Origin: Reclinomonas americana ATCC 50394
Taxonomy: Eukaryota
Reading direction: 5' to 3'
Length of the DNA stretch: 64,000 nt
Assembly (NCBI GenBank): GCA_048213135.1
Contig: PS015016.1
Span: 1-64,000 of the forward strand
Shown here piece after piece: positions 28,183 to 46,033 of the stretch. The translations under genes were made by a program, and so were the position numbers. Below the pieces are notes generated by a model. That model worked only from the letters and a program-made list of their open reading frames with translations. It made no database searches and was not told the origin of the DNA. Numbering within the stretch: position 1 is the stretch's first letter; each line of letters begins with the position of its first letter.

Positions 28183-28388
28183 CGGTGTGGTTGACGACGA
28201 TCGGAGAAACTGGCGGCAACGTGCAGAAATCACGCGTCGACACAGACTAAACAAACCCGCGGGAAGGCCCACCACAAAGAACAGCGCGCTGCTCACGAAC
28301 ACCACCACCACAGTGACGAGGTGAAGCACAACGCGAACTATTCTTGAAAGACACAAAGCGCGCGCGCGCGCGCGAGTGTATTTTTGTC

Positions 28389-28407
28389 AAAGGCAGGTGG
28401 GTCAACT
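28389..28407 (+). repeat. Left terminal inverted repeat AAAGGCAGGTGGGTCAACT
   Basis: Exact reverse complement of 40619-40637. Followed by GTAAGCCGACAG (28411-28422), whose inverse is at 40593-40604. Confidence 0.95.
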
Positions 28408-28907
28408 GATGTAAGCCGACAGCGCAAAATCCCGTCGATTGGCAGTCCAAACTGGATTTTGGAGACACATGGTGGTCACGGCGGCCGAGGTGGGGCGGGC
28501 CCAGTGAAGGTGCACGCGTGGACTGTATTGGCTCATTTCGTAGCCAATGAAACGAGCTACAAAGTGATGTCTGCGGATCTGCTCGGCGACCTTCCGTCGA
28601 GGAGAGCGGCGCGTCCAAAGTCAAAAGTGCCGATTTTTCGCCAGAAATCGACCTTTGTTGTCGTCGTGCCGACACCTTCCTCCGAGGCGCTGAGGTCACA
28701 CCGAGGGTCATCTGAAAGGCCTTTCGCTGGGCTATTGTGTAAATTCAGAAAAAACAACGCCACTATTTCCTGTCGTCCAGGAGGACTGAAACACATGCCG
28801 AGATCCACATTTCGCGCGCGCGCGAAACGTTGCCTCGGAAATAACAACTCTGTCTTTCTTTTGTGTCGCGAGAGGGGGCCAACAGGGTCTTGTGGGGGGC
28901 GCCGACC

Positions 28908-31900
28908 ATGGCCAGCGGCCATGATGTCGAGATGCATGACCTCGCGTCGCGATCGTGCCTCGTGTCTCCGCCAGCGCCCACTCGGCATTGGCGCCGGCAG
29001 TCTCCTGTCACCCCCACTGGGGCACAAGCCGCCGCAGCTGCAGCGCACGTTGCACGAGCAAGTGTGCATGCATCAAACGGCAGTGGCAGCGGTGTCGCGC
29101 AGCTGCAGGTGAGAACGTGCCTGACTGCCTCTCGACACTCGAGTTGTCTCTCTCACTGTTCCTTGACCACAGTTTGGCGCACACCCCTCCGCCTCAACCG
29201 CACGCGTTCTGGCGTCGTCGTCAGACCCCCAGTTCACCATGCCGGTGCCCAGTGATGCCATGTTGTGGTCCCCGATGTTGCCGACGCCTCCTCAATCAAT
29301 TCCGGTCAGTTTCCCGCTCGGAAGTCCGCCACAGCTGCCCCCTTCGCTCTACGGTCACCAGTGGACCCCTCCCGCGGTTGGCATGTCATCCGTGGTGCAG
29401 ACGTACGGTGGCGCTGCACCAAGCACCGTCACCATCAACTTCAGTGGCACGCCGGAAGGACAAGCCACGTACGACGTCGCCTCCCTCTCTCGCTTGCCTC
29501 ATGGTTTGGGCGCGGATGCCAGTGGCAGCTTGTTCCTGACGCCGACGTCACCGTTGTCGCCGCCGCCGCCGCCGCCGCCCGCTGCTGCTGCCGCGTCGCG
29601 CACATTCGTAAAACTGGTGCGCAACCCTGGACTGCTGGCCAAACTCGTGTGCTCCTTGGTCAAGGCCCCGTCGTCTGCGGAAGGAGTCGCCTGTGATGTG
29701 CGTGCGTGCGTGCGTGCATGTGTGTGAGAGAGAGAGAGAGAACGGTTGTGAGCTCATTGTCGTGCATTCTCCCTCCTCAGCCCGAGTTCACGCCGTTTGC
29801 GGCGAGAGTGCAGTCGTCGCTGTGCACGGACTTGTCAGCGACAGTGGTGGACATGCTGTGCGCGCATCAGCGTGACGGTGCACCTGCGCGGCAAGGTCGA
29901 GCCCGCGGAATGCCGACATCGCTCGCCGAGGCACTTGTCGAGAGGCTTGTCGGCACAGTGCAACAGATCCCCAGTTCCAGTGACGACGACGACGACGACG
30001 ACGGCCTACAGTTGCTAGCCGAGCGCCGATCGCTCACCGCTGTCCTCTTCATCAACCACTACCACATGAACTCGCGCCTGCGGTCGAGCGACGCCACCCC
30101 CCTCAATGCTCACGAGAAGGCGATCTGGACGCTTATCTGCTGGCGACTGGCAGATGCGCTGCAGGCTTCCAGGCGCAACAAGCGACGCGCACCAGCAAAT
30201 GAGCGTGATTATGCGGCCGAGATCGACGCCGATCATTCGCTGGTGTCCCAGATCGACGGCACAGGTCAGCTAGACAACATCATCACCAGCGCAATCACCA
30301 CCGTCCTCTCTGTCGACAAGAGTGATGGTGTGAGAAATGCTCTCGGTCGCGCCCTTCGGATCAACGCAGCCAGGTCGACCTCCAGTCAGTCAGGCGGCGC
30401 CATGCGATTCAGTCGTTCTGGCATTTTGTCACTGCTGGATGGCCTCAGCGAACCCGCCGTGGTGGTGCTCGATGCACTGTACAGTGTCATCGACGCAGCG
30501 CGTCTGGCCGACCGCGATGCCGTGGCCGTTGTTCCTCCGCCACCTTCAATGCCGCAGCCGTTCGCGTGGTCTCTGCAACGGTTGGAGGTCAGCACTACTG
30601 CGCGGTTGTTTCGCACTGAGCTTGCCGCGCAAGCGTTTGCGGCAGTGGTTGCCGATCCTCCTCCCGCTCCAGCCGGCCCGGTGCAACTTTCCAGTGAACA
30701 ATTGTTCATGTTGGGTCGGAACCATCACCGTCGCGAGTTCAATAGGCGCAACGCGGAGCATCTGCGCTCCACCACTCCTCGCAAGCTCGACCTCGACGCC
30801 CAGGATCCGGATGCGGCCGGGCAGGTGCAAGTGCGTGGCGATCTTCCGCTCCGACCTTTACACCAGGCACGGTTGCAGTTGCCTGCAGCAGACGCCGATG
30901 CCGGGTCGCGCGTCAATGGCGGGGAATACGACCTGAAGTTCAAGAGCGTTGAGCGTCCGCGGGCGGGTGCACCAAAGGCCGGATCTGGCCAGTGCGTGTG
31001 CCTCAAGTACTCCAGCGGCGCTGAAAAGGGCATTTACTGCGCCTCTTTGTGCGACTCCAAGGAGCAACCTGCGAAGATGCTGTCCACCGCGACTGCTTTC
31101 GACCGCAACAGGGGATGTTGTGTGGAGGTTGGCGCGCACGTGGGCAAGACTTGCCGCTCCTGCCGTGACAAGCATGACGAGCCGCATGGTAAGCTGGCAG
31201 CAGGTGCCGCTGTCGCCGTGACCAGTCGGAAGAAGGCGAATCGCGCACCTGGACGACCACGAGGTAATAAGCAGAGTCGAGTGCGGCCTGACCTGAAACC
31301 GAATCGGCGTCTGCGCAAGTCGCAGGTGAGTTGCTGTGACGACGTATTCTCCAAGTCGATGCAATCGCCCATACTGTGAACAACTTCTTTGTCTTAGAAA
31401 CTGAGCGACCAGTCTGCCGCACTGCCAGCTGTTGCAAGTGACGCTGTTCCGGAGGGGTTTGTGGTGGCCGATGAGGAGGAGGTGATTCCCCCCACACTGT
31501 GCCCATGTCGCACACCTGTGCTTGTATATCCTGATCAAACTGTCGTATATACGCAGCTGGCCATGGTCCAGCAGCCAGATCCCATGCGTCCATTGTACGA
31601 TCACCTCCACATCCTCGCTGACGGCGATGGGGGGGACGAGAGTGAGCGCGCCCAAGGTCAGCGGCCGGAAGAGATGCCTGCCGATGTCAGCGCCGTGTTG
31701 GACCAAGTGGCTGATAACGTCCGCAATGGTGACATGGACCGAATGCTGGACGACCCGATGAAGTTGCACTCGCTGGAGATGGAGGTACTTTTCAACGATT
31801 CTGACTCTCCGCTCACTGCTGCTTCCTCGCTCAACGAACTCGCTCGTGCTCTGCAGGGGGTCTCTCGCCCGTTGCACGCTGCTCGAGCGCTGCATAATGG

Positions 31901-34900
31901 CACTGAAGGGAACACATTTGAGGATCAGTGTGCTGGGTGTGGCGGAGGCGTGTTGCTTTGTGGAGCGCGGTCGTGCAATAGTGGCCTGGTGCTGAAGTGC
32001 TCGACTGATCGATTGTCGACCCCGTGCCTGTTCCGATGTGCGTGCCACCTCATCCGTCCCGACTCCGATGGCGTGCCAAAACTTCGACTGCCATCGCTCG
32101 GCAATGCCGATTGGTTTACCGTCGAACGTGTGTCGGACGAGACGCAGCGAAATGTGTTGCGTCCTGCCACTCAGTGTGCTTATGCCTCGCCCTCTTTCAC
32201 GTTCCGTGCACTGTGTGGCTCTCTCTCCCCCCTCAATTTCTCTCTCCCTTCGCCTCCCTCCTATTCCCACCCTTCCTGACACGAGTGTGCCTTTTTCCCA
32301 TTTCACAGACTCCCGTTTCTCTGCGAGTCGTGCATCCGATCGAGCGTCGAGCAGCAGGTCTTCGTCGGAGAAGCATTTGGCACAATTGCTTCGGTGGGTT
32401 CAGTGCGGTTCCACGCGGTGGTGAATCACGTCAATCGAGTCGCCCGCCTCTGTTCGTCGCACCACTGGGGCAAGCGTGTCTCGGACGCCGAACATGATGC
32501 AACAGCCGACCCGGAGCCCGGGACGTATTCGTGGAGTCTTGCGGTGAACGGCAAGACAAGTGCGTCTCCCTTCGACTCCAGTGGACGGTCGGTCGTGTCG
32601 GTCACTGCGTACGACGGCGTCACGTTCATCTTTTCTCGGGCAGACGTTACGGATCCGCCGTCGTCGGCACCGTCGCCTTCGGGGTCGGCCTCGGCTGATG
32701 ATGCGAGTGCGCTTGAAGGCGAAAGCATCCGTGATGCGCGACACACTATGGTGAGAGACAGCGAGGCACCCATGGTCACTTGCTTCCCTTTTCGCTCACT
32801 TCCCTCTTTGCGTCCATCATAGGTTGTCCTTGCCAGTAACAATTCCATTGCTGTCTTCGTCGGTGGTAAGCGGCTCAGCCTCGGATCCCTCATCCTCGAT
32901 GACTTCTGGCCTCAGATCTCCGAGTCCGGCCCAGCTGTGCACCAAGGGACTCATTCCTGGTATCCGGCGACGGAGCACCTAAAGTCGTCAGGTTCGTCGC
33001 ATTAATCTGCTTAAGCTTGTGTCACAGGGCCAGCTCTGCGTCTTCTCATGAGTATAGTCTCTCATCTGCACCAGGTGTCGATGATGCTGACGTACTTGCT
33101 GCGGTGTCGTGGGCGATGGCTGTGAAAGCCGGTAACCTTGATGATCGGATCCACAATCTGTCGACACTGCGCGGAGTGTTGGCCATTCTGACTGTCTGTC
33201 GGCCCTGCAGCGGCATCGACAACGAGGTGTCCTCTCGCACAGAGGAAATCTTGTCTCACCACACCGACAAGGTGACATTCGACTACCCGTTTCCGGCCTC
33301 CATCTTTCGCAGTTTTGTGAAACCCAGTTCCGCACCGCCGCTGTCACCGTCGTCGACCGTGTATCGCTCTCGTGGCTGTGCCAGCTTGGCGTTCGTGGTT
33401 GGTGGCGGTTCGTACTTTCCTCCCGGGATCCCGGCCCTTTGATCGCGCCCAGTGTCGGGCAGTGATTGTGACTCATTGGCTTGGGATTGCACAGGTTCGA
33501 ACAAGCCTGCGCGAAATATGTGCGCCGCTTGCAGGCGCGCATTGGGCGCATGTGACACAGAAGCATCACGAGCTCGAGGAGCAGCGCGGTCTGAAGCTGG
33601 CCGGGCGACGGTTGACGAAGCCGTCAAGTTATTGACCCGCCCTCAGCGTGCGTTTTCGTTGCTTTTAGTGCGCGTGTTGGCTTGCCGCGTGCAGGCGCCG
33701 TTGCTGACTGCCTCTTTGAACGTCAGCGGGCGTATCACAGCAGATGCAGATGGCTTTCGCACGTGCGGCGGTGGACTTACGCAACACTCGTACCTCGGAT
33801 ATTCACGGCACCAATAACGGACGACGCTTTGCTGACTCTTGTTACAAAGTGGCGATGGCAATGCGCATGACGAGTTGCGTTCCACTGGATGACTTCCGTT
33901 GCATTTACCTTCCATTGACCGACACCACTCCGTGCGCTACATGCAGTGACGAAGAAAGCGTACACGGCCCTCCGCTCAGTGGTCACTTGGATTCCGTCAG
34001 TCTCCTCGCTTCACCGGAGGCTGGCGGGTACGGAGTATCGCACGGAGGCAACCGGCCTCGTCCACAAGACAGTGCATGAATTTATGCAAGCCGTCAAGAG
34101 CGGGGAGGTTTCGCGGGTCGTTGCGATGACCTACGATGAGATGAGCCTCCAGCCAGGTGAGTGATATCAGGCGATGCGTATTTTTTGTTGCATTTCTCTG
34201 GCGTTCCAACACATGTTGCACATGATAGGCGTGCAAATCTCACTGCATGATGGCCGACTTCTCGGGTTCAAGACGGTTGCGCCACTCCACGAGCACCAAG
34301 AATCGGGTGCGGTGTAGTTAGTTGTTCTCCGTCCAATGCGTGCCATTGTCCTGTCCCCTCACACAAAACTCTTGTTGCTATGCAGAGGCCATCAAACGGC
34401 GCACATTGCTCACCGACGCTAACGAGCCCAGGGCGCATGCCAATGGTCCCACGCCTCCTCCCTCTGTGGTGTTGTCTGTGGACCAGGCCGCCGCATTGGA
34501 TGGCAGCGGCGAACAGGTGGCCGACGGTGACGACCGCGTGTCGTCGGCCGCTGAGTCGGTTGACATCAGCATGACATCGAAGCGTGGAGAGGTTGCCGTG
34601 GACAACGTGGCAAGCCATCTGTTTCGAGTCTACATCACGACTATCGATGGTCGATTCAGTGGTGCTGTGTATCATGCATTCACCAACGGCAAGTCTGACG
34701 CCGCCGAGATTGAGGCGATTGTGAGTAGAGCGAGAGACTTGCTTCGTGCGACGGTGCCATCAATTGTGGTGAGTGCATGTACTGCGTGTGTTTGTTGTGA
34801 CGTTTGTTGCTCCTGACATGCACCTCGTGCGTTCAGTTTGCCATGGAGATCAGTGATGCTGCCTCTGTGAACGCCAAGATTCGCCGGGGACTTGAGTGCG

Positions 34901-37900
34901 CCTGTTACCTGGAGACTGTTGACTGCATTCGATGCCGTTTCCACTTTGCTGTCGGAGAGCAGAGCGAGAGTCGGACGGCTGAAGTGGAAAAACTTTTGCA
35001 GCACCACTTTCACCACGACCACAAACTGAACGAAGCGGAGGTACGTGCACGCAGGTGGGTGGAAGTATCTTGTGCAGCTCACTTGCGTCGTCGTCACACA
35101 CAGGTCGAACAGCACCTTGCGGAATTCAGGGAAAAGGAAGCGATTCGACTGGCTGTTGGCAAACCGGATTCGTCGCTCGTTGATCACGCCCTGTTGGTGC
35201 ACGGTGTCAACAAGACCGCGTTACCGATGTTCAAGGCCATCCGTGCAGAGACCGACGTCGTCCACTTGATGAAGCGCATATTCAAGGTGCCTCACCCGAG
35301 TTCCATTGCCCCAGCTGCAGTCCGTTGCCGCTACTCTGCTGAACTCTCTCGTGAACAGGCGTTCATTCGTCATGGTGACTGCATGATGACGTATGGCCGG
35401 AGTCAGTTTGCGCCGCTCGTCAACGTTGACGTAAATTCGGTGGAGGAGAAGATGGTTTGTTCCATTGCTTGTCCAGTGCACGCCAGTGTTGGACTCGTGT
35501 CTAACGGGCGCTGCACGCAGGCCGTGGAGAGCATGATCGAGCCGCTTCGTCGCTTGGAAATTCTCTTGTCGCACAAGATGAACATTGCCCGCAAGCGTTC
35601 ATTGCGGGAATTGACACGCGACACGCTGCCATTCTGCGAGGTTTACGCTGTCCTTTGCGAATGGATTGCGCTGGTGCGAGGTCCAGCCGCAGGTGGGCAG
35701 GTGGCCGACGACGCTGACAGCGAAGGTGAGTTTTCAGTCCCGGAAAAAGTGGACCACATACTCACTCTCGTCTGCGCAGTTGCTGGATTGTCTTGGCAGC
35801 ACCGGTGCAAGTCTCGCATCGCAACTTTGATTGATGAACACGACTGCGTTATAAGAACAGAGCATCTGGCGGCACAGGGTGCGGCGCTGATGAAGACGTC
35901 TCTCGCCACGGACTATTTCTCCTTCAACACCGCTATTTATCTCATCAAGCAATCTGTAGCCAGCACTCCGCGTCAAGATGGCTGGTTCGAACACGTGGTG
36001 AGTGCCATCTCCCTCCTCTCCCTCCCTCCTCTCTCTCTCTCTCACACACACTCACTCCTGGCTGATCTCGTACCGGGGAAACTCAGCTTGACATCGTCAT
36101 GTTTGCCGTCTGGTACCGCTGCGTGACATTCTTCGCCGAGTTCGACATTCGCACCGAAGAGTCAAACGAGGCACTGCAGAGCCTGGCCTGCATCTTGGAA
36201 CTCGTCGTGAATCGGACGCGGATGATTGACGAGCACCGTGAGAAGTGCGCTTAGATTTGCATCGTGCAACCGACTCGTGTGCCCCGATTTGACTCGTCGT
36301 GCAGATACAAGGAGTTCCACCCAGACTCGGATCCTGTGTCGTTGGACAGCGGAGTCCTTTTCATCGGTCGTGACTTGACGGTGTGTGCGGCGTCGACGAT
36401 AAGTTTTCTCGTCGACCTTCGAAACCTTGCCGTCAATGAAGACCCGCTGGATGCGTCGTGCTCCGAGTCGCAACGCATGCGCGACTGCATGTTCATGGTT
36501 CGTTGGTGGTCGTCGGTGCTCCGCGCAAAATTCCACGTCTCACCGCCTTTCATGCAGGTGAACATTAATGCCATCTCGCAACAGTCCTTGGAGTCTTCGT
36601 TCAGTGGCACGCGTGCTGCTGTTGCCGGTGGCGCCCCAGGACCACGTGAGGCCGCGGCCATTGCGACTGGCCAGGCGCAGCGTGACGCCGCGCGCAACAT
36701 TGGTCTCCGGCCTCGTGATAATCGCCCAGAAGCCGCTGTGTACCGAGCCCAGCACACAGCAGATCAGCTGCGGGTGTTCACACACGGCGCACAGGTCGCC
36801 ATTGCTGAGCGCGAGCGTGCTCAGGGTGCCGACCTCCTGCAGCAGGCTGCCGGTCGGGAGGAGCCACGTATTGAGGATTTCCTCAGTCCTCCTGCTCCCG
36901 TGTGCCGGGCACGTGGTCCCGAGATAAGACCCACCGACAACGAGGCGTACGCTCGCGTGTGGGACATTCGTGAATGTGCGTGTCGCTTGTGCTGTTGCCG
37001 TCACGCTCGCTGAGATCGACTTCACCGTACTCACTTTGTAAATTTTTTGCTCTCCGCAGCGTACGTTCCACCAGACCCTGTGAATGTCGACCGCCTGCAG
37101 AGGTGGGCTTCGAACAGCAGCAAGCTCATCCCCTACCTGTATGACGACATCGTGTCGGAGGTGACCTTGGGCGTGTACGAGTCGTCGATCGTCGACCGCA
37201 TGAGTCGCCAGGTCAATCATGGTGGCTTGATGGTTCACCAGGATGTCGTTGCCGCGACTTATGATAGAATCGGCCACAACAGACAACTGCTTCCGCTCCT
37301 GCACCACCTGCGCTCTATGCGAGACCCCAAGAGCCCGCTGATTGGCATCGCTCTTGCGGTGAACGAGCTGCTACATCACAATGCGATACCGTACTGCTTT
37401 GTGGAGACGACCTTCTCCGATTTGCTCTCGCTGTTTTCGGATACCAGTGACGAATCGCATGCACAACTCTGGCTGCTGTGGCGACGGATGATTGTTGATG
37501 TGTATCCGGTTGCAATGGAGGTCGACCGTGGCGCTGCAGCAGCGGTATCGGTGCGTCTCCGCTTGATCCCCTGTCTGACTGCAGCTCGACAACCTGCAAT
37601 GTTGGCCACTCACTTACCCGTGTTGCAGGCCGAAGAGATTCTCAGCCAGTGGAAGATGGTGTTTCGTGAGTTTGTTCACAACCTCCTCTTTCGACTCTTG
37701 ACCAACCTCATTGCCGAGTGCGGGCTGTCGCCGAGGAGCAAGAAGCAGGCGCCTGTCCGTGCACTGTGGGCTCGAAAAATTTCCCGAGCTGCCCAGCCAG
37801 GTGAGACGAGTGTGCACTCAGTGGTGCGGCATTTTCTTTGTATGATTCTCATTCTGTCTTCTGGAATAGACGTCGCGATGGGCGATGACGGCGTGCCTGC

Positions 37901-40008
37901 GGAAGTGGTGAAGGCGCCAGTGACTGCCGCCGAGCGTCTCCAACACGTGGGCGCAGCAATCACATGTTTTAACTGTGATCGCAAGGGACACGACGCATAC
38001 GTCTGTGGTGCGCTCATCCGAGCAAAGAAATGCCATCGGTGTGGAGAACCTGGCCACTTCCAGGTAAACTGCCCGTTGATGTTCCGCGCAACGCGGCTGA
38101 ACATTGTGCGAGACCGGGAGGACGCTGGCTTGGCTGCGGATGGGGGGCCGCACAACGCCGATGCCGTCTTGGCAATGCGACCGGTGTGTGGCATCCACGT
38201 TTGCTGTGATGTTTTCTCCGTAACCCTCGTGAACCTCTCACTGTGGCTCGTTGCTCCGTAGTGCCCGTTCTTGAATGTGGACATGGAGAATCCGAAAAAG
38301 GGAAATCCCAAGCCATGCAAAAGTGAATACCGGATCGGATCGCGGGCGGTGTCCTCGTTGTCGAAACACATTGTCAACTGTCACATGGGTCACGCTGTGC
38401 GTTCGGGTCTTGTTGATGCCGCCGTGGCAGCGAAGTCATTTGAAGGTATGAATAGTTGCCTGTGCCTGCGACGGGTGCATGCATCACGCGACTCATTGAC
38501 AATCGATGGACAACAGAGCGCATAAATGCGGTGAGGGCAGCCCTTAAGCTTGTTGCCAAATACGAAGACCTGGTCGACATGGCGATACACATTCGGCCAA
38601 GTGTGGAGTACGAACCCAACCCTCTCGCTCTCTCGGCTCCATCTCGCGACAAGTGGGAACCCGAGTTTCTCAGAGCGTCGCTCCTCCCGGGTTCCTCGTG
38701 CCATCCCTCGCTGGCTGCTGATGAGGAACACGCTCGCACCGGTGCTCTTGTACAGGGGTCTGCAGAGTGGCACCAAGAGCGCATCGGCCGTGCCGATGTT
38801 CATCGGTTCACTGCCAGCCAAGTCGGTGCCATGGTGGGCATCATGGACGCGACGTGCTGCATTGTGAGTGGCGCGTTCCCGCGCCTCTACTTTTCGGTCT
38901 CCGTTGCAACAGCCGTGGCTGAGCACGTGGCACGTCTCCTCGCGATCGAGTACGGTGTGGAAATCGGTCGGCTGTTGCGTCTTTGTGTGCGTGTGGGAAA
39001 GGAACCAGAGTGGCGATTATTCCTCACATGTGTGCCGCCCTCTGTGCGCAGGGAGCCGAATGCGGCGATGCTGTGGGGTACCCATCACGAGGACTGCGCA
39101 CTTCTCACGTTCTGTCTGAATCACCCCCACGAGGTGGTGCTGAAGACGGGAGGGTATTTGCGAATCGCGCACTGCCCAGTGCAGGATGCACTCGGCGGGC
39201 AAGTTACTGTACCCGTTGAGGTGTTCGCCTCACCAGATGGTAGGTCATCTGGTTGCTTGTTCTTCGCATCATCACATCGCTATGTTGCTCATTGATTGGT
39301 GTCACGCCGCAGCAATGAGCGCCACTGAGAGTGCCGATGGGTATCACTACTTGCTGGAGGTCAAGTGTCCGTCACCATTCTCCGCCACCTCCTTCGCTCT
39401 GTCGAAACCGCCACGTCGCTTCGTTTCCGCCCAATACATGGTTCAAGTTCAGCTCCAGCTCTATGCGACAAACTTTCGCTTGTGAGTGTCGACGCGCGTC
39501 TGAGCCCGCGCGCGGTATCCACGATGCGGTACCGATTCAGCCAACTCATCAACCGTGTGCACAATGTAGGGCAAAGTTGCTGTCGTGGACGCCGAGTGGC
39601 ATGTTCGTCTTCGAGATCCCTCGCGATGACACACTCCTCGGGCTGCTGTTCCCGCTGCTGGGCCACATGGCTGGTGTCGTTCAGCGAGTATTCGAGTACA
39701 GTCGCGGTCGCGGCCACGGCTCACGCAGCACCGACGTCAAGTTCCCGGCCGAATGGGGCGACGATCCACATACCTGGCGACCTCTGCAGGCCACTACCGA
39801 GATCATGGAGAAGTTTGAGCGCTTTGTGTGCCGCCTCTCGCGTGCTTGTCGGAAGGCCGAGGAAACCTGCCGAGCCTACAAGGACGTGTACACTGGGCCG
39901 CTGGGCAGACTGTGGGTGCGTAACGCGGTTCCTATGGTGCCGCCGGTGCCTGCGGCGGACGTGGAGATGGCCGCGGCCGAGGCGGTCGGTCCCAACGGCG
40001 CGCAATGA
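28908..40008 (+). CDS. Transposon polyprotein: Cys-rich N-terminal region + P-element/THAP9-like DDE transposase + 2x CCHC knuckle + C2H2/BED-like finger + YqaJ (lambda-exonuclease) domain; ~20+ introns, ~3,100 aa
   Basis: KKAYTALRSVVTWIPSVSSLHRRL; YDEMSLQPG (D, 34135); ISDAASVN (D, 34855); TDVVHLMK (DxxH, 35254); SQQSLESSFSGTR (E, 36591); NHGGL; CFNCDRKGHDAYVC and CHRCGEPGHFQVNC; QGSAEW..R..TAS, WGTHHE, ASPD, LEVKCP and YMVQVQLQL. Phase-compatible GT-AG introns link all exons. Confidence 0.8.
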
Positions 40009-40618
40009 TCTTCCGATAATGTAATGCAAGAGCCTTCCTTTCCTCCACCAGCGAATGCTTTGCTGCTCCGTTTTCACGTGCAATGGTGGGAGAGAGAGTT
40101 TGGGTATGGTTCGCTCTTACTGGAATGGTCGCGAAGCTGCGAGGAGTCATGTCACGGTGGGTCGGCGACGATGCATGAAATGTGACGAATTCATGAGCAA
40201 AAAAATTGACGGATTTCTCGGTCGCTCTTGGTGTCACGCGCACAGCGCGACACCCACCGACTCACTCGCCGATGTCCTGAATTTACACACTACCTGAAGC
40301 GCTGCTCTACACGCTCATATGACGCACGTCGCCACAGACGAGGGCAGATGTGTCGGCACGACGCACACTTTGAGCGCTTCGATTTTTTCGCGCCGAAACT
40401 TGCAGGCTCTTGTCGTTTTTCTCGCGCCACGAGTAAGCACGGCAGTCGTGCCGAGGCTCAGCAGGTGCGCCCGTGAGTCGCGCGTCGAATGGCCTTAGTC
40501 AGGGCGCAAGGAGGTGCGTGGGTGACGAGAACGGGCAATTTCTGCGCGAGGGGGTGTCGATCTTTGACTCAGCCGATATTCGCGCCTCACTTCTGTCGGC
40601 TTACTGACAAATCGACGA

Positions 40619-40637
40619 AGTTGACCCACCTGCCTTT
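40619..40637 (-). repeat. Right terminal inverted repeat AGTTGACCCACCTGCCTTT
   Basis: Exact reverse complement of 28389-28407. Confidence 0.95.
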
Positions 40638-40693
40638 ATTTTTGTCACTCTTCTCTTTTTTTGTTTACACGTACGCGCGCGCAAGAAGTACAC

Positions 40694-43363
40694 ATGGCAT
40701 CGTTGGACGGGGCAGACTTTGATGTAGTGGTGCTGGGCACTGGACTGGTGGAGAGCGTGGTCGCTGGGTTCGTTCTCACACACGTGAGCTCTCACACACA
40801 CACGCACTCATGAGCTTACACAAACTCTGCTCCCTCATTCTCACACTTGCACACACAGCGCATGTGCACGCATTGGCAAGCAAGTGCTCCACCTGGACCG
40901 CACAGGCGCCTACGGAGCTGCGTGGGGATCACTGTGCTTCCAGGAGGTGCAGGAGTTTGTGCGCAACGGAGGCCAGTTGAGTGACACTGTTGGGGAGGGC
41001 GAGCGCGAGCGCGATGGACACGGTGCGCAGCTGCTGTTCTCGCAGTGTGGAGTGGTGCACTGCGATGAGGAGGACTTGCCGCGCTTGGAAGCAGTTGCGG
41101 TCTTCGTTCATTCATCCGCTTCTGGTGCTGCTTTCTCTCTCTAACTCGTTGGTGCGACGCACAGAGCAACCGCGGCTTCAACCTCGACTTGCCGGTGAAG
41201 CTCGTGCAGGCACGCACGGACCTCGTGGACGCCATGATCACGTCGGGCGTGTCGCGGTACATGGAGTTCTACGACCTGCGCAACTCGTACATGTTCCGAG
41301 GAGGGCGCTTTGTGCGAGTTGCGTGCCGAAGTGGTCGCTTGCCTCTCTACGTGTTCTCTCATGGGTGTGTGTTGGGGGGAACGATCAGGTGCCGAGCTCG
41401 CGTGGCGACGTGTTCCAGAGCAAGGACTTGGATCTGAAGCAGAAGCGCACGTTGATGAAGTTTATCAAGTCGTGTGTGGAAGACGAGGCTCTGGGTCAGC
41501 TGCCAGGTGCGCTGTTTCTGTGTGTGTGGAGTGGGCTGTGCGTCTGTCGTGCTCACTGCGCAAGACAGAGCACGAGAGTCTGGCTTTTGTGGACTTTTTG
41601 GAGCAGCAGGGTCTCGACGAGCAGTTGCGCGATTTCGTCTTGTACGCTATTGCGTCGCTGTACCACGGCCAGGATGATGGTATGTGCGCGCGCCCTGCTG
41701 CACTGCGTTTCGTGCAGCACATGCTGATTGTTATAAAAACGCACAGCATCGAGCCCCCATCGTTGCACACTGGCGGAGGGCGTGGAGCGGATACGCCGCT
41801 TCTCCACCTCGATTGGGCGTTTCTCCGAGTCGGCCTACATCTACCCGCTGTTTGGCATCAGTGAGATCAGCCAGGCGTTTTGCCGGTGAGCGCTTGTTGT
41901 GTTTCTTTTCTCCTGTGTGTGCATGCATGCTGACAGCAGTGCGTTGTGCAGCCTGTGTGCCGTGTTTGGTGGCATTTACGTTCTGCGGCGGTCGATTGTG
42001 CGATGCGAGGTGAATGCGGAGAATGTGGAGCATCCGCTGAGTGTCGCCATGACGGAGGGGGAGACGGTGCGCACGCGTCACTTGGTGGCGTCGCCAGAAT
42101 ACTTCCCCGAGAATGTCACCACCACCGAGTACGTGATACATGTGGTGTCGACTCGAGAGAATGCACACACACACTCACTCACTCCACCAAACAACAGGCA
42201 CCTCTCGCGCTGCATTGCCATTCTGTCGCATCCGCTCTTCCGACAGGAGCCACCTGCCGACGAGCACGTTAGCGAGACGGCACACTTGTCGATGAAGTAC
42301 CAGCTCGGATGCTTCTACGCGGTGCTGCCACCGCACACTTTTGGCAATGCGCACCCCATTCATGTGATTCAGGTGGACCACCACTTCAACACGGTGCCGA
42401 ATGGCTACTACGCCGTGCAGATGACGACTGTGAGCTCTGGCGACGCTCGTGCCGATCTCACTCCCGCGCTGGAGGCGCTGGTGGAGAATGCGCATGCGGA
42501 GTGGACTACGCACTATGCTGAGGAGCAGGCGGCCGCCGAGGCGGCTGCGGTTGCTGCGGCCGCTGATGCCGCCGAAGCCGCCGAGATTGCTGCTGCTGTT
42601 GCGGCTGCGGAGGCTGCAGAGGCTGCAGAGGAGGCTGCTGCCGCTGCGGCTGCTGCGGGCAGTGAAGAAGAGGGAGCGTCCAGTGATACTGCTGCTGTGG
42701 CCGCTGAATCCACAGTGGTGGCACAGGCGGTGGTCGCCGACGCCTTGTCGGCGGTGGAGGCGGCAGTAGCCTCGCCTGTAGCCGCGCCAGCAGAGCCAGT
42801 GCCGGCACCGATGCCCAAGGGTCCGCACATCATGTGGTCGGCGGTGTTCCAGCAGGCGATTCGAAAGGTTTTCTGTCGTGTTGCAGTCGTCCTCTTGTCA
42901 ACGTGTCGCTCAATCACTGTGGTTGATCGGTACAGGTGGATCCAACCGTGGAGCGCCATGCCAACATGCACATTACGGCGTCGCCGCAGGCCACACTCGA
43001 CTGCGACGATGTGATGCCACTCGCTCGTGCCATCTTTGACCGCATGTTCCCGGGCGAGGAGTTCTTGCCTCGTGTTCCCAACCCCGAGGACGAGGTGTGT
43101 GTCGCGTGCTTTGCCTCTCTTCATCCGTACTCCTTCTCACACCTTTACAGTGGGAGGCCGTGCCCGATGAGGAAGAGGAGCCGACGGCCGGCGAGGGCTC
43201 GGGTGTGGTGTCTGCCGAGCCGGTGGAGGGAGCAGCGGGCAGCACTGCGCCATCACAGCCCGACGATGCGGTTCCCGAGTCCGGGGCGGCGGCCGCGGAA
43301 CCGATTCCGACTGCTGAGCCGGTCGCCGATGCCGAGACACCGGTGGAGGCCACGGCTCCCTAA
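40694..43363 (+). CDS. Rab escort protein (REP/CHM/Mrs6; GDI superfamily)
   Basis: [95 protein letters not shown] and FPGEEFLPRVPNPED. Confidence 0.9.
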
Positions 43364-43542: not shown

Positions 43543-46033
43543 TTACACAAACTCCTCAATATCAATCTCGACCACCGACACTGGAGTCTCGATGCCAAAG
43601 TTCTTGAGGACCAGCGGGTGTACCACACCGACGTAGCCAATGGGGCGGCCATGATACAGCACGTGCGCCTGCTGACCAGGGAACAGGAACGGCTCTGTGT
43701 GCCGACAAGAACATGTGAGCGATAATTGACGAAATCACTCGAGCAAGTGCAGATTACGCCCGAACCAGCGGATTCTGCGAGACGGAAGCCATCGTCAGTG
43801 TGTGGCTCCCATTCCACACTCAACACTTGCATTGTGCGATCCAGCAAGCCGTGCACCGTCTGCGTATACACACACACACACGCAAAGCTGTCAGCTCATG
43901 AAACGCAACGATCATGAACAAACATATACACACCTCAAAGCTCGACGCCTTGGAGACGTAGGCTGCGGCGAGCTTGCGCACGTTGCGTGCGCCAACGTCA
44001 GCCGCCGCATCCTTGACCACGGCGTCCGACAGCTCGAAGAAGTGCAGCGGCAGCGGCTCGGTGCGGTTGTGTGCAATTGTTCTCAACAGCCCCGACAGCA
44101 GCGTCGTCCGCACAGTCTGGAACTCGGTGTTCTTCGGGTTGGCCACGGTAATGGCGAGTCCATCGTCTGGCCGCAGAAGCATCTCGTACAATTCGTCACG
44201 CGAGCACTGAGAGAGCACGCAGTGGCGGGGGCGGTGGCGGTGAGTGGCAAGAGAGAGAGAGGAAACGAGGGGGAGAACGAGTGGGACTCACCAATGCCAG
44301 CGTGAGTACTTCGGTGTAGCCTGCAAAGCCCATTTCTAGCCGCAGCAGGTCGCTGAGCTTGTTGAGTGGTTGTGGCTTGCCGGTGGTGGTGGTCTTGGGG
44401 TATGTGCGAGGCACGCGGTTGTAGCCGTACGCAATGCAAATGTCCTCCACCACGTCACATGCGTGCAACACATCGGGCCGTGTCGGTGGTGCCGACGTCC
44501 GAATGTACGTCGCATCGTCCGGGTCGACCTCCGACGGCAGCTGCATCCGTTGCAACAGCGCGCAGCACTCGGCCGCCGTGATGTCCGACACACCAATTGT
44601 GCGATGCACGTCTGCCAGGGCCACACGGAAGTGGCTCCACGAGAGGTCCGGATAGGAGCACGAACGGCCGTCGGGGTACACCACGGAGACGGGTTCAATG
44701 CTGCGCATGGGGGATCGATGGTGAGAAGGGAGAATGGGGAATAGAAGAAGAGGGGAGAGAGGCAAGAGGCGAACGCACTGGAACTTGTTGGCGCAATAGC
44801 ACGAGAAGCCGGCCACGATCATGTTGAGCGTGATAATGGCCTTGGTGAGATCGGTGGCGGTGGCCTCGATGAGCACGTTGCGAGTGCGCAGAGCGATGCG
44901 CGAGTGGTTGCCGTTGATGATCGGCGGCATGGAGAGGACCACACGATTGGCGTCGTAGATCACCGGGTACACTGGCGAGTCGCGGATAATGGGCAGGAAC
45001 TGTCGCAGCTTCAGATCCGACTCGTACATGACCATCATCTCGGCGGCTGCACGCATCGCAAGCGTCAGGAGAGGCACCCAGAAGGTGAGTAAAGTACGCA
45101 TGCCGCACCATTCATCTCCACAGTCTTGTTGAGCGGCACGAAGCGAATCTGGTCCGGCGGCAGCGCCTCGTACGTGAACGGTGCCTGGATGGTGTCCAAA
45201 TCGTGCGTGCCAATGGCCACGAGTGTGCGCCGGCGGCACAGGTTCTGATGCAGCTTGTCCTGGAACTCAATGAAGCGATTGTAGTTCTTCTCGTCAAAGG
45301 TCACATCCCGCAGCACGGCGCTGACAATGTGCGGACGGATGCGAGCCGTATCCGGGTGCACCGTGATCACAATCGGCTCTGCAGGCAGACACACACACGC
45401 ATGTCAGGCCTCTCACTTGTCGACGAATGAATGCACAACAAGCAGACCTCCACGAGGCGGATCAATCGTCAGCGCCGGCGGTGCACCGCGTCCTCGGAAC
45501 ACGCGCAACGCTGCTGCCAGACCCTCCAAGCACCTGCACATCATCACTCATCAGCTGTGCACACACACACACACCTCTCCTGGCACGCAACAGCAAGTCG
45601 TAGCGATTGGCCGGCACCTCAATCTTGTAAATGATCTCGTTGGAGGTCTCCGAGACACCGACCAGTGTGCTCGGGTCGCCCTCCACTCCGCGCTCCTTGC
45701 GCAACATGGTGGCCTCCGTGGTCTTTTGTCACAAGGAAATGTGAGTTGCTCAAGTACCTCCCCAATGTGCTCCCTTTCCTTACATCTCCCACGCACCACA
45801 TCGTCCAGCTCAATGCCGAACTCGAAGCACAGATCCTCGAACTGAGAGTCAGCTGTGTGCGCGAGACAGAGAAAGACAGGAACGAGTGTGCAAGTGTGAG
45901 TTGAGCATGACATGTCACTTCTCTCTCACACGCACGCACACACACTCTCGCGTGGCACGGGATGCATCACTCAACTGAACTCCTCGCCGAGAGCGGCCAT
46001 GAGGTCGGCCTTGGGAATGGCAACTACTGGCAT
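43543..46033 (-). CDS. FARSB: Phenylalanyl-tRNA synthetase beta subunit (cytosolic)
   Basis: [96 protein letters not shown] and GVVHPLVL. Confidence 0.96.

Follow-up and report, generated by a model that had tools for sequence, protein, structure and literature searches.

A 12.2-kb terminal-inverted-repeat transposon from Reclinomonas americana with a YqaJ exonuclease domain apparently spliced to transposase-like exons

Introduction

In the ISL2EU (PHIS) transposons of eukaryotes, a YqaJ protein is encoded by a separate second open reading frame (ORF) near a DDE transposase, and its function is stated as unknown (PMC4482050, PMC4122938; here and below, published descriptions are cited from extracts of the papers). 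The ISL2EU transposase is PIF/Harbinger-like and carries a THAP domain, the elements have a mean size of ∼4.8 kb, their terminal inverted repeats (TIRs) usually start with GG, and their proposed target is A|AT|T with a 2-bp AT duplication (PMC4482050). The Drosophila P element and zebrafish Pdre2 make 8-bp target-site duplications, and P-element donor breaks are repaired by homologous recombination or nonhomologous end joining (PMC7776569). Enzymes of the lambda exonuclease type degrade the 5' strand of double-stranded DNA from its ends, which yields long 3' overhangs (PMC3424549). Here we describe a transposon of Reclinomonas americana ATCC 50394 in which YqaJ exons follow transposase-like exons in one apparent splicing chain. 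The window, by which we mean the whole stretch of DNA analyzed, comprises 64,000 nt of a eukaryotic scaffold (contig PS015016.1), and all positions are those of the whole window. An earlier note, made from the sequence alone, had proposed a YqaJ domain fused in frame to the C-terminus of a P-type transposase. That note had also stated that YqaJ domains occur near some other eukaryotic DDE transposases, which the ISL2EU papers confirm.

The segment 28389-40637 represents one inserted copy of a cut-and-paste DNA transposon of 12.2 kb. With moderate confidence, we favor the joint reading that this transposon carries a transposase-like gene spliced to a YqaJ exonuclease which would resect the ends produced by excision.

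Results

As judged by sequence comparison, the spliced product of the last three exons of the gene (exons I, J, and K; Table 1) is a YqaJ/lambda-exonuclease domain (PD-(D/E)XK). This identity, first proposed in the earlier note, is borne out by Pfam, our own hidden Markov models (HMMs), hhalign, TIGR03033, and the alignment of the catalytic residues. Stop-to-stop translation of the three plus-strand frames across 38456-40008 recovered all six of the peptide motifs quoted there, each in its place: the frame 38456-39295 carries QGSAEWHQERIG..FTASQVG, EPNAAMLWGTHHE, and FASPD, the frame 39144-39485 carries LLEVKCP and YMVQVQLQL, and the frame 39319-40008 carries LLSWTP..EIPRDD. The end coordinate of 40008 was correct, being the final base of the TGA stop, and so was the in-phase junction into exon I (G38445 and AG38517-18 give GAG, for Glu, followed by RINAV). 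The start of the intron before it had been placed one base late, at 38447; the GT lies at 38446-38447 and the AG at 38515-38516, so that the intron is 38446-38516.

The proposed Pfam check with PF09588 gave a match in which exon J alone exceeds the curated cut-off: the segment 39300-39482 scored 24.8 bits (E = 2.9e-5, profile positions 100-149 of 150, cut-off 22) and the frame 39144-39485 scored 24.0 bits. A tblastn search of phages with exon J reached only E = 5, the target being an annotated YqaJ exonuclease of Pseudoalteromonas phage H103, whose gene itself scores 85.9 bits against PF09588. The H103 gene was used as the profile seed, and its relatives in IMG/VR provided an 8-sequence alignment, A1, and then a set of 69 distinct sequences. 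Against solved structures, the A1 profile matched 3SYY (1.2e-35), mimivirus R354 (4.8e-21), and lambda exonuclease 1AVQ (9.5e-16). When A1 was compared with the window by hhalign, the N-terminal exon was matched with 87% probability (E = 3.9e-6) over QxSxEW..R.G..TAS..VGA, and exon J with 92% probability (E = 6.7e-7) over the ExKCP and YxxQxQ motifs.

For scoring with the HMMs, the three YqaJ exons were joined by their coordinates in a script. With the A1 HMM the spliced domain reached 30-32 bits, and with the HMM of 69 phage YqaJ sequences it reached 39.8-40.7 bits, the latter over profile positions 7-180; as a control, 2000 shuffles and the reversed sequence scored no higher than 3.4 bits with the 69-sequence HMM. 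The same model was run over the 1215 six-frame ORFs of the window (at least 30 aa), and the top two were the YqaJ exons, at 19.2 and 11.9 bits, followed by a third ORF at 5.7 bits. TIGR03033 ("lambda-exonuclease family") was the sole NCBIfam family found for both exons I and J, at collinear positions: residues 77-108 of exon I fall on profile positions 2-28 (E = 0.18) and exon J on positions 102-141 (E = 7.9e-4), matches which are under the 68-bit cut-off and in which each exon represents part of the domain only. The top matches in PHROGs were weak exonuclease families.

A word-indexed protein search with exon J, in which 13 candidates were scored, found no relative, and phmmer against the PDB with exon J, a 441-aa ORF, the ORF 36255-37013, or exon A gave either no match or chance rows (E 0.4-1.4). 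Two leads were rejected. The best ESM Atlas score for exon I, 0.80, fell on unrelated plant clusters; a viral-contig scan with exon J produced one 19-residue match, for which YqaJ motifs were seen in none of five overlapping ORFs, no family search having been run on those ORFs.

The active site of the domain looks intact at the level of its catalytic residues, and the nuclease is predicted to be active. The lambda exonuclease record carries R, D, E, and K at residues 28, 119, 129, and 131, respectively. By hmmalign, D119 is placed on the D of ASPD (39236-39238), and E129 and K131 are placed on the E (39357-39359) and K (39363-39365) of LLEVK. Catalytic residues that did not align with lambda exonuclease had been named in the earlier note as grounds for giving up the assignment; here the D, E, and K all align. 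In addition, the Arg of EWHQERIG (38780-38782) matches, by hhalign, the phage-family Arg that aligns with lambda R28. Lambda R28 binds the 5' phosphate. The motifs that precede the core, Q-x-S-x-E-W..R-x-G..T-A-S and N-A-x-x-x-G..E, are both present, and our own HMM aligns NAAMLWGTHHE with the family pattern N..A..yG..hE. The introns I-J and J-K are the only candidates that give the family order of motifs. Beyond the core, exon K continues into a tail of ∼125 aa without a family match.

The boundaries of the element, which the earlier note did not mention, are defined by TIRs and a target-site duplication (Table 1). The element measures 12,249 bp. Its TIRs start with AAAGG, and the TIR sequence AAAGGCAGGTGGGTCAACT has two matches in the window when up to three mismatches are allowed, a count reached in 0 of 100 shuffles. 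In 300 Markov-1 simulations of the 14.2-kb region, no 19-mer inverted repeat with arms at least 1 kb apart was obtained. The 12-nt subterminal repeat GTAAGCCGACAG likewise has two matches in the window, one per end, and 2 of 100 shuffles reached two. The perfect 19-nt TIRs and the identical 9-mers that flank them indicate one insertion of a genuine TIR transposon. As expected of a Class II TIR element, the TIRs and the duplication surround a transposase-like gene, the transposase identity being at the level of motifs. The noncoding ends between the repeats and the gene are about 0.6-0.85 kb long. No second copy of the element was seen within the window. Two exact matches to the 19-nt TIR were found in metagenomes; their flanks were unrelated and they were taken as chance.

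The exon chain was then read across the element. From 33919 to 40008, each shift from one open frame to the next can be spanned by a GT..AG intron 68-90 nt long, and removal of the ten introns leaves 5,295 nt, or 1,764 codons, with a single stop at the very end. Seven of the ten introns have a T content of 0.33-0.37 as compared to 0.22 in exons. Two retroviral-type CCHC zinc knuckles are encoded ∼190 codons before the YqaJ domain. The fusion hinges on the removal of one candidate intron, 38184-38261, with T 0.35 and GC 0.54 (exons, T 0.22 and GC 0.58), whose acceptor AG belongs to the sole in-frame stop. Because the stop ends with this AG, reading can continue in the downstream frame right from the first base, which supports the intron. 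On this splice logic, the YqaJ exons are probably spliced in frame onto the transposase-like exons to give one polypeptide. The part of the earlier claim that concerned in-frame joining to the C-terminus therefore holds at the level of sequence logic, and its "P-type" label is not supported by any tool.

If intron 38184-38261 were retained, the protein would end just short of the nuclease, a speculative resemblance to the retention of IVS3 in the P element. In the P element, IVS3 retention gives a truncated protein. The in-frame stop of the 78-nt intron could in this way serve to turn the nuclease off.

No profile or search tool supports the designation of the upstream part as a P-type transposase. 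What remains is a resemblance of motifs to THAP9, seen by eye, and the duplication is 9 bp. The exons carry, in order, FMQAVKSGE..AMTYDEMSLQ, LLGF..ASHLFRVYITTIDGRFSGAVYHAF, FAMEISDAAS, TDVVHLMKRIF, and SQQSLESSFSGTR, a series which resembles THAP9 MEME motifs 8, 2, 1, 7, and 10, taken in turn as the D, GF..GYFF, second-D, D(2)H, and SQD.LE regions; those motifs that can be read as adjoining in the published table keep the same order there (PMC10824691 Table 1). Likewise by eye, the putative catalytic positions, D, D, D(2)H, and E, fit the "signature string" of the P superfamily (PMC8230255). Transposases of this superfamily also have an insertion domain between beta5 and alpha4. We consider it somewhat probable that the upstream part is P-related. 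Word-indexed searches with the exon-D ORF scored 7997 candidates in the "longer" and 7999 in the "near" setting and found no relative, a metagenome scan with exon D gave 91 pattern matches and no relatives among them, and ESM Atlas gave no usable match for the 441-aa ORF. In a test for an N-terminal THAP (C2CH) DNA-binding domain, there was no PF05485 match; a regular expression found C-x2-C-x41-C-x2-H spacing like that of THAP zinc fingers at 32322-32462 (..RFH.. and ..CSSHH..). A Cys-rich stretch at 31929-32048 on the plus strand was likewise picked up by regular expression only.

Further upstream within the element, long coding-looking frames of ∼3.6 kb in total can be joined by three GT..AG introns (Table 1). 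They contain no Pfam family and could represent a second gene or an N-terminal extension.

The surroundings of the element are those of host genes. The element adjoins the 5' side of a Rab GDI/REP-like gene, with 47 nt between the right target-site duplication and the ATG, and the insertion site is therefore its promoter or 5' untranslated region. A gene for the phenylalanyl-tRNA synthetase beta chain lies beyond. The window contains seven runs of N, and its GC content per 2 kb is 0.48-0.62. Microsatellites of the types (TG)n(GA)n and (CA)n occur at 29694-29750, 36024-36055, 40769-40837, and other places. Those at 29.7 and 36.0 kb fall in candidate introns of the transposon; that at 40.8 kb comes directly after the first coding stretch of the Rab GDI/REP-like gene. 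These microsatellites explain most of the remaining long inverted-repeat pairs in the window scan.

Table 1 Features of the transposon and its flanking genes, in window coordinates
Feature	Position	Strand	Remarks
Left target-site duplication	28380-28388	.	ATTTTTGTC; abuts left TIR; identical to 40638-40646
Left TIR	28389-28407	+	19 nt, AAAGGCAGGTGGGTCAACT; 100% complementary to right arm (inverted-repeat scan)
Left subterminal repeat	28411-28422	+	GTAAGCCGACAG; 3 nt inside left TIR
Upstream coding-looking ORFs	29167-32822	+	long frames, ∼3.6 kb, joinable by three GT..AG introns
Upstream candidate introns	29698-29780, 31326-31397, 32213-32308	+	GT..AG
Exon A	33919-34156 (gene from at least 33919)	+	..AMTYDEMSLQPG; candidate first catalytic D 34135-34137
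Intron A-B	34157-34228	+	72 nt, GTGAGT..TAG
Exon B	34229-34306	+	..LLGFKTV..
Intron B-C	34307-34385	+	79 nt
Exon C	34386-34768	+	..ASHLFRVYITTIDGRFSGAVYHAF..
Intron C-D	34769-34836	+	68 nt, GTGAGT..CAG
Exon D	34837-35997	+	FAMEISDAAS, candidate second D 34855-34857; TDVVHLMK, D(2)H-like, D 35254-35256
Intron D-E	35998-36086	+	89 nt, GTGAGT..CAG
Exon E	36087-36237	+	
Intron E-F	36238-36324	+	87 nt, GTGAGA..CAG; alternative 36245-36304 likewise in frame
Exon F	36325-36969	+	SQQSLESSFSGTR; candidate catalytic E 36591-36593
Intron F-G	36970-37059	+	90 nt
Exon G	37060-38183	+	two CCHC zinc knuckles
CCHC knuckle 1	37962-38003	+	by pattern C-x2-C-x4-H-x4-C
CCHC knuckle 2	38028-38069	+	PF00098, 29.2 bits
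Candidate intron G-H	38184-38261	+	78 nt, GTGTGT..GTAG, phase 0; in-frame TAG 38259-38261
Exon H, linker	38262-38445	+	ATG 38283 (MENPKK..)
Intron H-I	38446-38516	+	71 nt, GTATGA..CAG, phase 1
Exon I, N-terminal YqaJ half	38517-39239	+	QGSAEW..R..FTAS; NAAMLWG..HE; ASPD
Intron I-J	39240-39312	+	73 nt, GTAGGT..CAG, phase 1
Exon J	39313-39481	+	LLEVKCP, YMVQVQLQLYAT
Intron J-K	39482-39569	+	88 nt, GTGAGT..TAG, phase 2
Exon K	39570-40008	+	last nuclease-core strands LLSWTPSGMFVFEIPRDD; HMM alignment to profile position 180; TGA 40006-40008
Right subterminal repeat	40593-40604	-	GTAAGCCGACAG; 14 nt inside right TIR
Right TIR	40619-40637	-	19 nt; perfect 19/19 pair with left arm
Right target-site duplication	40638-40646	.	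ATTTTTGTC; 9/9 identical to left copy
Rab GDI/REP-like host gene	ATG 40694 onward	+	PF00996 match
Phenylalanyl-tRNA synthetase beta chain (PheRS beta) host gene	44196-45266	-	beyond Rab GDI/REP-like gene

Discussion

The reading that we favor, a transposase-like protein that carries its own exonuclease, would assign the following order to the gene: a divergent P/THAP9-like DDE region, a long unassigned region, the two CCHC knuckles, a linker, and a complete YqaJ domain. Excision by a DDE transposase would leave double-strand ends, to which the tethered nuclease would be delivered. There, the YqaJ domain would act as a 5'-to-3' exonuclease and generate long 3' tails, and the CCHC knuckles may hold the resulting single strand. 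The 3' tails would steer repair of the donor site to homologous recombination from the sister or homologue, and the element would be restored. This function in resection and homologous repair, a role that the earlier note had likewise suggested, is an inference.

Several findings weigh against this reading. Isolated N-terminal pieces of the YqaJ domain have no Pfam match at all, with a single exon passing the threshold, and phmmer with exon I (240 aa) found 0 matches at E ≤ 0.001 among 1,835,955,588 representatives. The stretch from the TAS to the NAAM motif is ∼40 residues longer than in the phage proteins and lambda exonuclease, unless it hides an unrecognized intron. An in-frame intron at 38974-39051 (78 nt) or 38854-39051 (198 nt) is possible; a 188-nt candidate at 38864-39051 (GTGAGT..GCAG) was rejected, as it disrupts the frame that carries NAAMLWG and its GC by codon position is coding-like. 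The extra stretch is without effect on the YqaJ conclusion. For the upstream part, no P-element, THAP, or other transposase family of Pfam was matched at E ≤ 1 in 8 ORFs or at E ≤ 0.1 in 49 ORFs, scans which were run exon by exon and hence with lower sensitivity. The protein libraries, ESM Atlas, and PDB sequences yielded no transposase match for the upstream exons either, and a single-sequence AlphaFold2 model of exon D was unusable (mean pLDDT, the predicted local distance difference test, of 35.4). Finally, the case for fusion is one of splice logic, and its details also bear on the first of the alternatives.

In this alternative, the locus yields two proteins, the arrangement known from ISL2EU: translation of the transposase-like protein stops at the TAG 38259-38261, YqaJ starts at the ATG 38283, and the nuclease is an accessory protein. 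The second protein might be expressed from an internal promoter or from a bicistronic RNA; other routes would be trans-splicing of a spliced leader to the AG 38260-38261 and a regulated retention of the 78-nt intron such as that of IVS3 in the P element. The ATG is in frame and only 21 nt past the stop, and the candidate intron has a donor, GTGTGT, of lower strength than the GTGAGT found in five others. In addition, YqaJ is a separate ORF in ISL2EU, the sole group of eukaryotic DNA transposons found in print with YqaJ. However, 21 nt are too short for a terminator and a promoter, and the 78-nt stretch is like the other nine introns in its length, its GT..AG ends, its T content, and, by eye, its translation rich in Cys, Val, and Leu. 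The frame that is open immediately past the acceptor also argues for splicing. We therefore regard two separate proteins as improbable, if the most serious of the alternatives to a single polypeptide that resects its own excision ends.

A different role for the nuclease would be that of TnsA, in which the YqaJ domain cuts or trims the 5' (non-transferred) strand at the element ends and leaves the cutting and joining of the 3' ends to the DDE domain. TnsA is a PD-(D/E)XK subunit of a transposase (PMC3424549), it is stated as unknown how, and in which order, the staggered second-strand cut of the P element is made (PMC7776569), and a one-ORF model physically ties the nuclease to the transposase-like part. 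However, the domain belongs to the processive YqaJ/lambda exonuclease family, not to that of TnsA, and the match includes the Arg equivalent to lambda R28. Moreover, canonical P and THAP9 transposases, as described in the extracts of PMC8230255, need no such partner. Taken together, a TnsA-like role is unlikely, more so than the two-protein arrangement. That the locus is a decaying or domesticated remnant whose nuclease is irrelevant to transposition, or that the repeats are unrelated to the gene, is highly improbable: a second copy is missing from the window and relatives are missing from the protein-library and metagenome searches, but the 1,764-codon open frame, the intact catalytic residues, and the 19/19 TIRs and 9/9 duplications speak for a young, intact insertion, and the repeats bracket the gene with noncoding ends of the length given above.

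The covalent transposase-exonuclease remains our preferred reading; if it is true, the breaks made by the transposase itself are where the nuclease works, and a single protein would suffice to probe, by point mutation, how excision is coupled to the choice of repair pathway. The role of YqaJ in eukaryotic transposons is an open question in the ISL2EU papers (PMC4482050). The range of P-like transposases, otherwise known as compact and single-function, would be extended by a domain architecture, a duplication length of 9 bp, and elements of a 12-kb class. As relatives were not detectable in libraries of 1.8 to 5.8 billion proteins, the element would mark a transposon lineage missed by current annotation pipelines. 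A bolder and doubtful extension is that this is the founding copy of an unrecognized large P-related family, in which a transposase covalently joined to two CCHC knuckles that bind single strands and to an active lambda-type 5'-3' exonuclease would "cut, then resect" and guide the donor break into homologous repair, with the outcome that a cut-and-paste element copies itself.

In the literature searched, to which subscription journals, Repbase Reports, and supplements were outside scope, YqaJ in eukaryotic DNA transposons was found in ISL2EU only, as a second ORF, and no paper joined YqaJ with the P element. Judged by titles and abstract openings, the literature on YqaJ and THAP consisted of ISL2EU, Spy, and Harbinger papers, giant-virus gene lists, and papers on bacterial, phage, and animal genomes. 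Among the matches listed for YqaJ and transposase fusions, none concerned, by title, a eukaryotic transposase fusion. What is apparently new here is the combination of a TIR transposon of 12 kb, a 9-bp duplication, and a YqaJ domain that seems to be joined to a P-like transposase.

The locus shares features with four known systems and differs from each. Like the element described here, ISL2EU is a eukaryotic TIR transposon with a YqaJ exonuclease beside a DDE transposase (PMC4482050, PMC4122938). There, YqaJ is a separate second ORF, whereas here the YqaJ exons are apparently spliced to transposase-like exons; the present element is also larger, at 12.2 kb, has a 9-bp duplication, and has TIRs that start with AAAGG. 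The element falls outside ISL2EU by the features that define membership of that group, and Pfam found no PIF/Harbinger family among the ORFs of the element. 

With the P element, the locus shares terminal and subterminal inverted repeats that are unequally spaced at the two ends (PMC7776569), as well as insertion in the 5' region of a gene, and, if the candidate catalytic residues are correct, with P and THAP9 it would share a long insertion that separates the second D from the E. Two features speak against membership: the target-site duplication has 9 bp rather than 8 bp, and ∼520 residues lie between the candidate second D and E as compared to 228 in Drosophila P. Unlike the element, known P/THAP9 members have neither CCHC knuckles nor a nuclease domain.

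The nuclease domain has the same motif set and catalytic D..ExK as lambda exonuclease, LHK-exo (3SYY), and mimivirus R354 (5YEU). Those enzymes are free-standing viral or prophage proteins, usually with an annealing partner, whereas the YqaJ domain of the window would be the C-terminal domain of an intron-split eukaryotic transposon gene, with the extra ∼40 residues after TAS and the ∼125-residue tail. Finally, the pairing of a PD-(D/E)XK nuclease with a DDE transposase recalls TnsA and TnsB of Tn7 (PMC3424549). TnsA differs in that it belongs to another PD-(D/E)XK family, is a separate subunit, is bacterial, and acts as an endonuclease at the transposon ends and not as a processive exonuclease.

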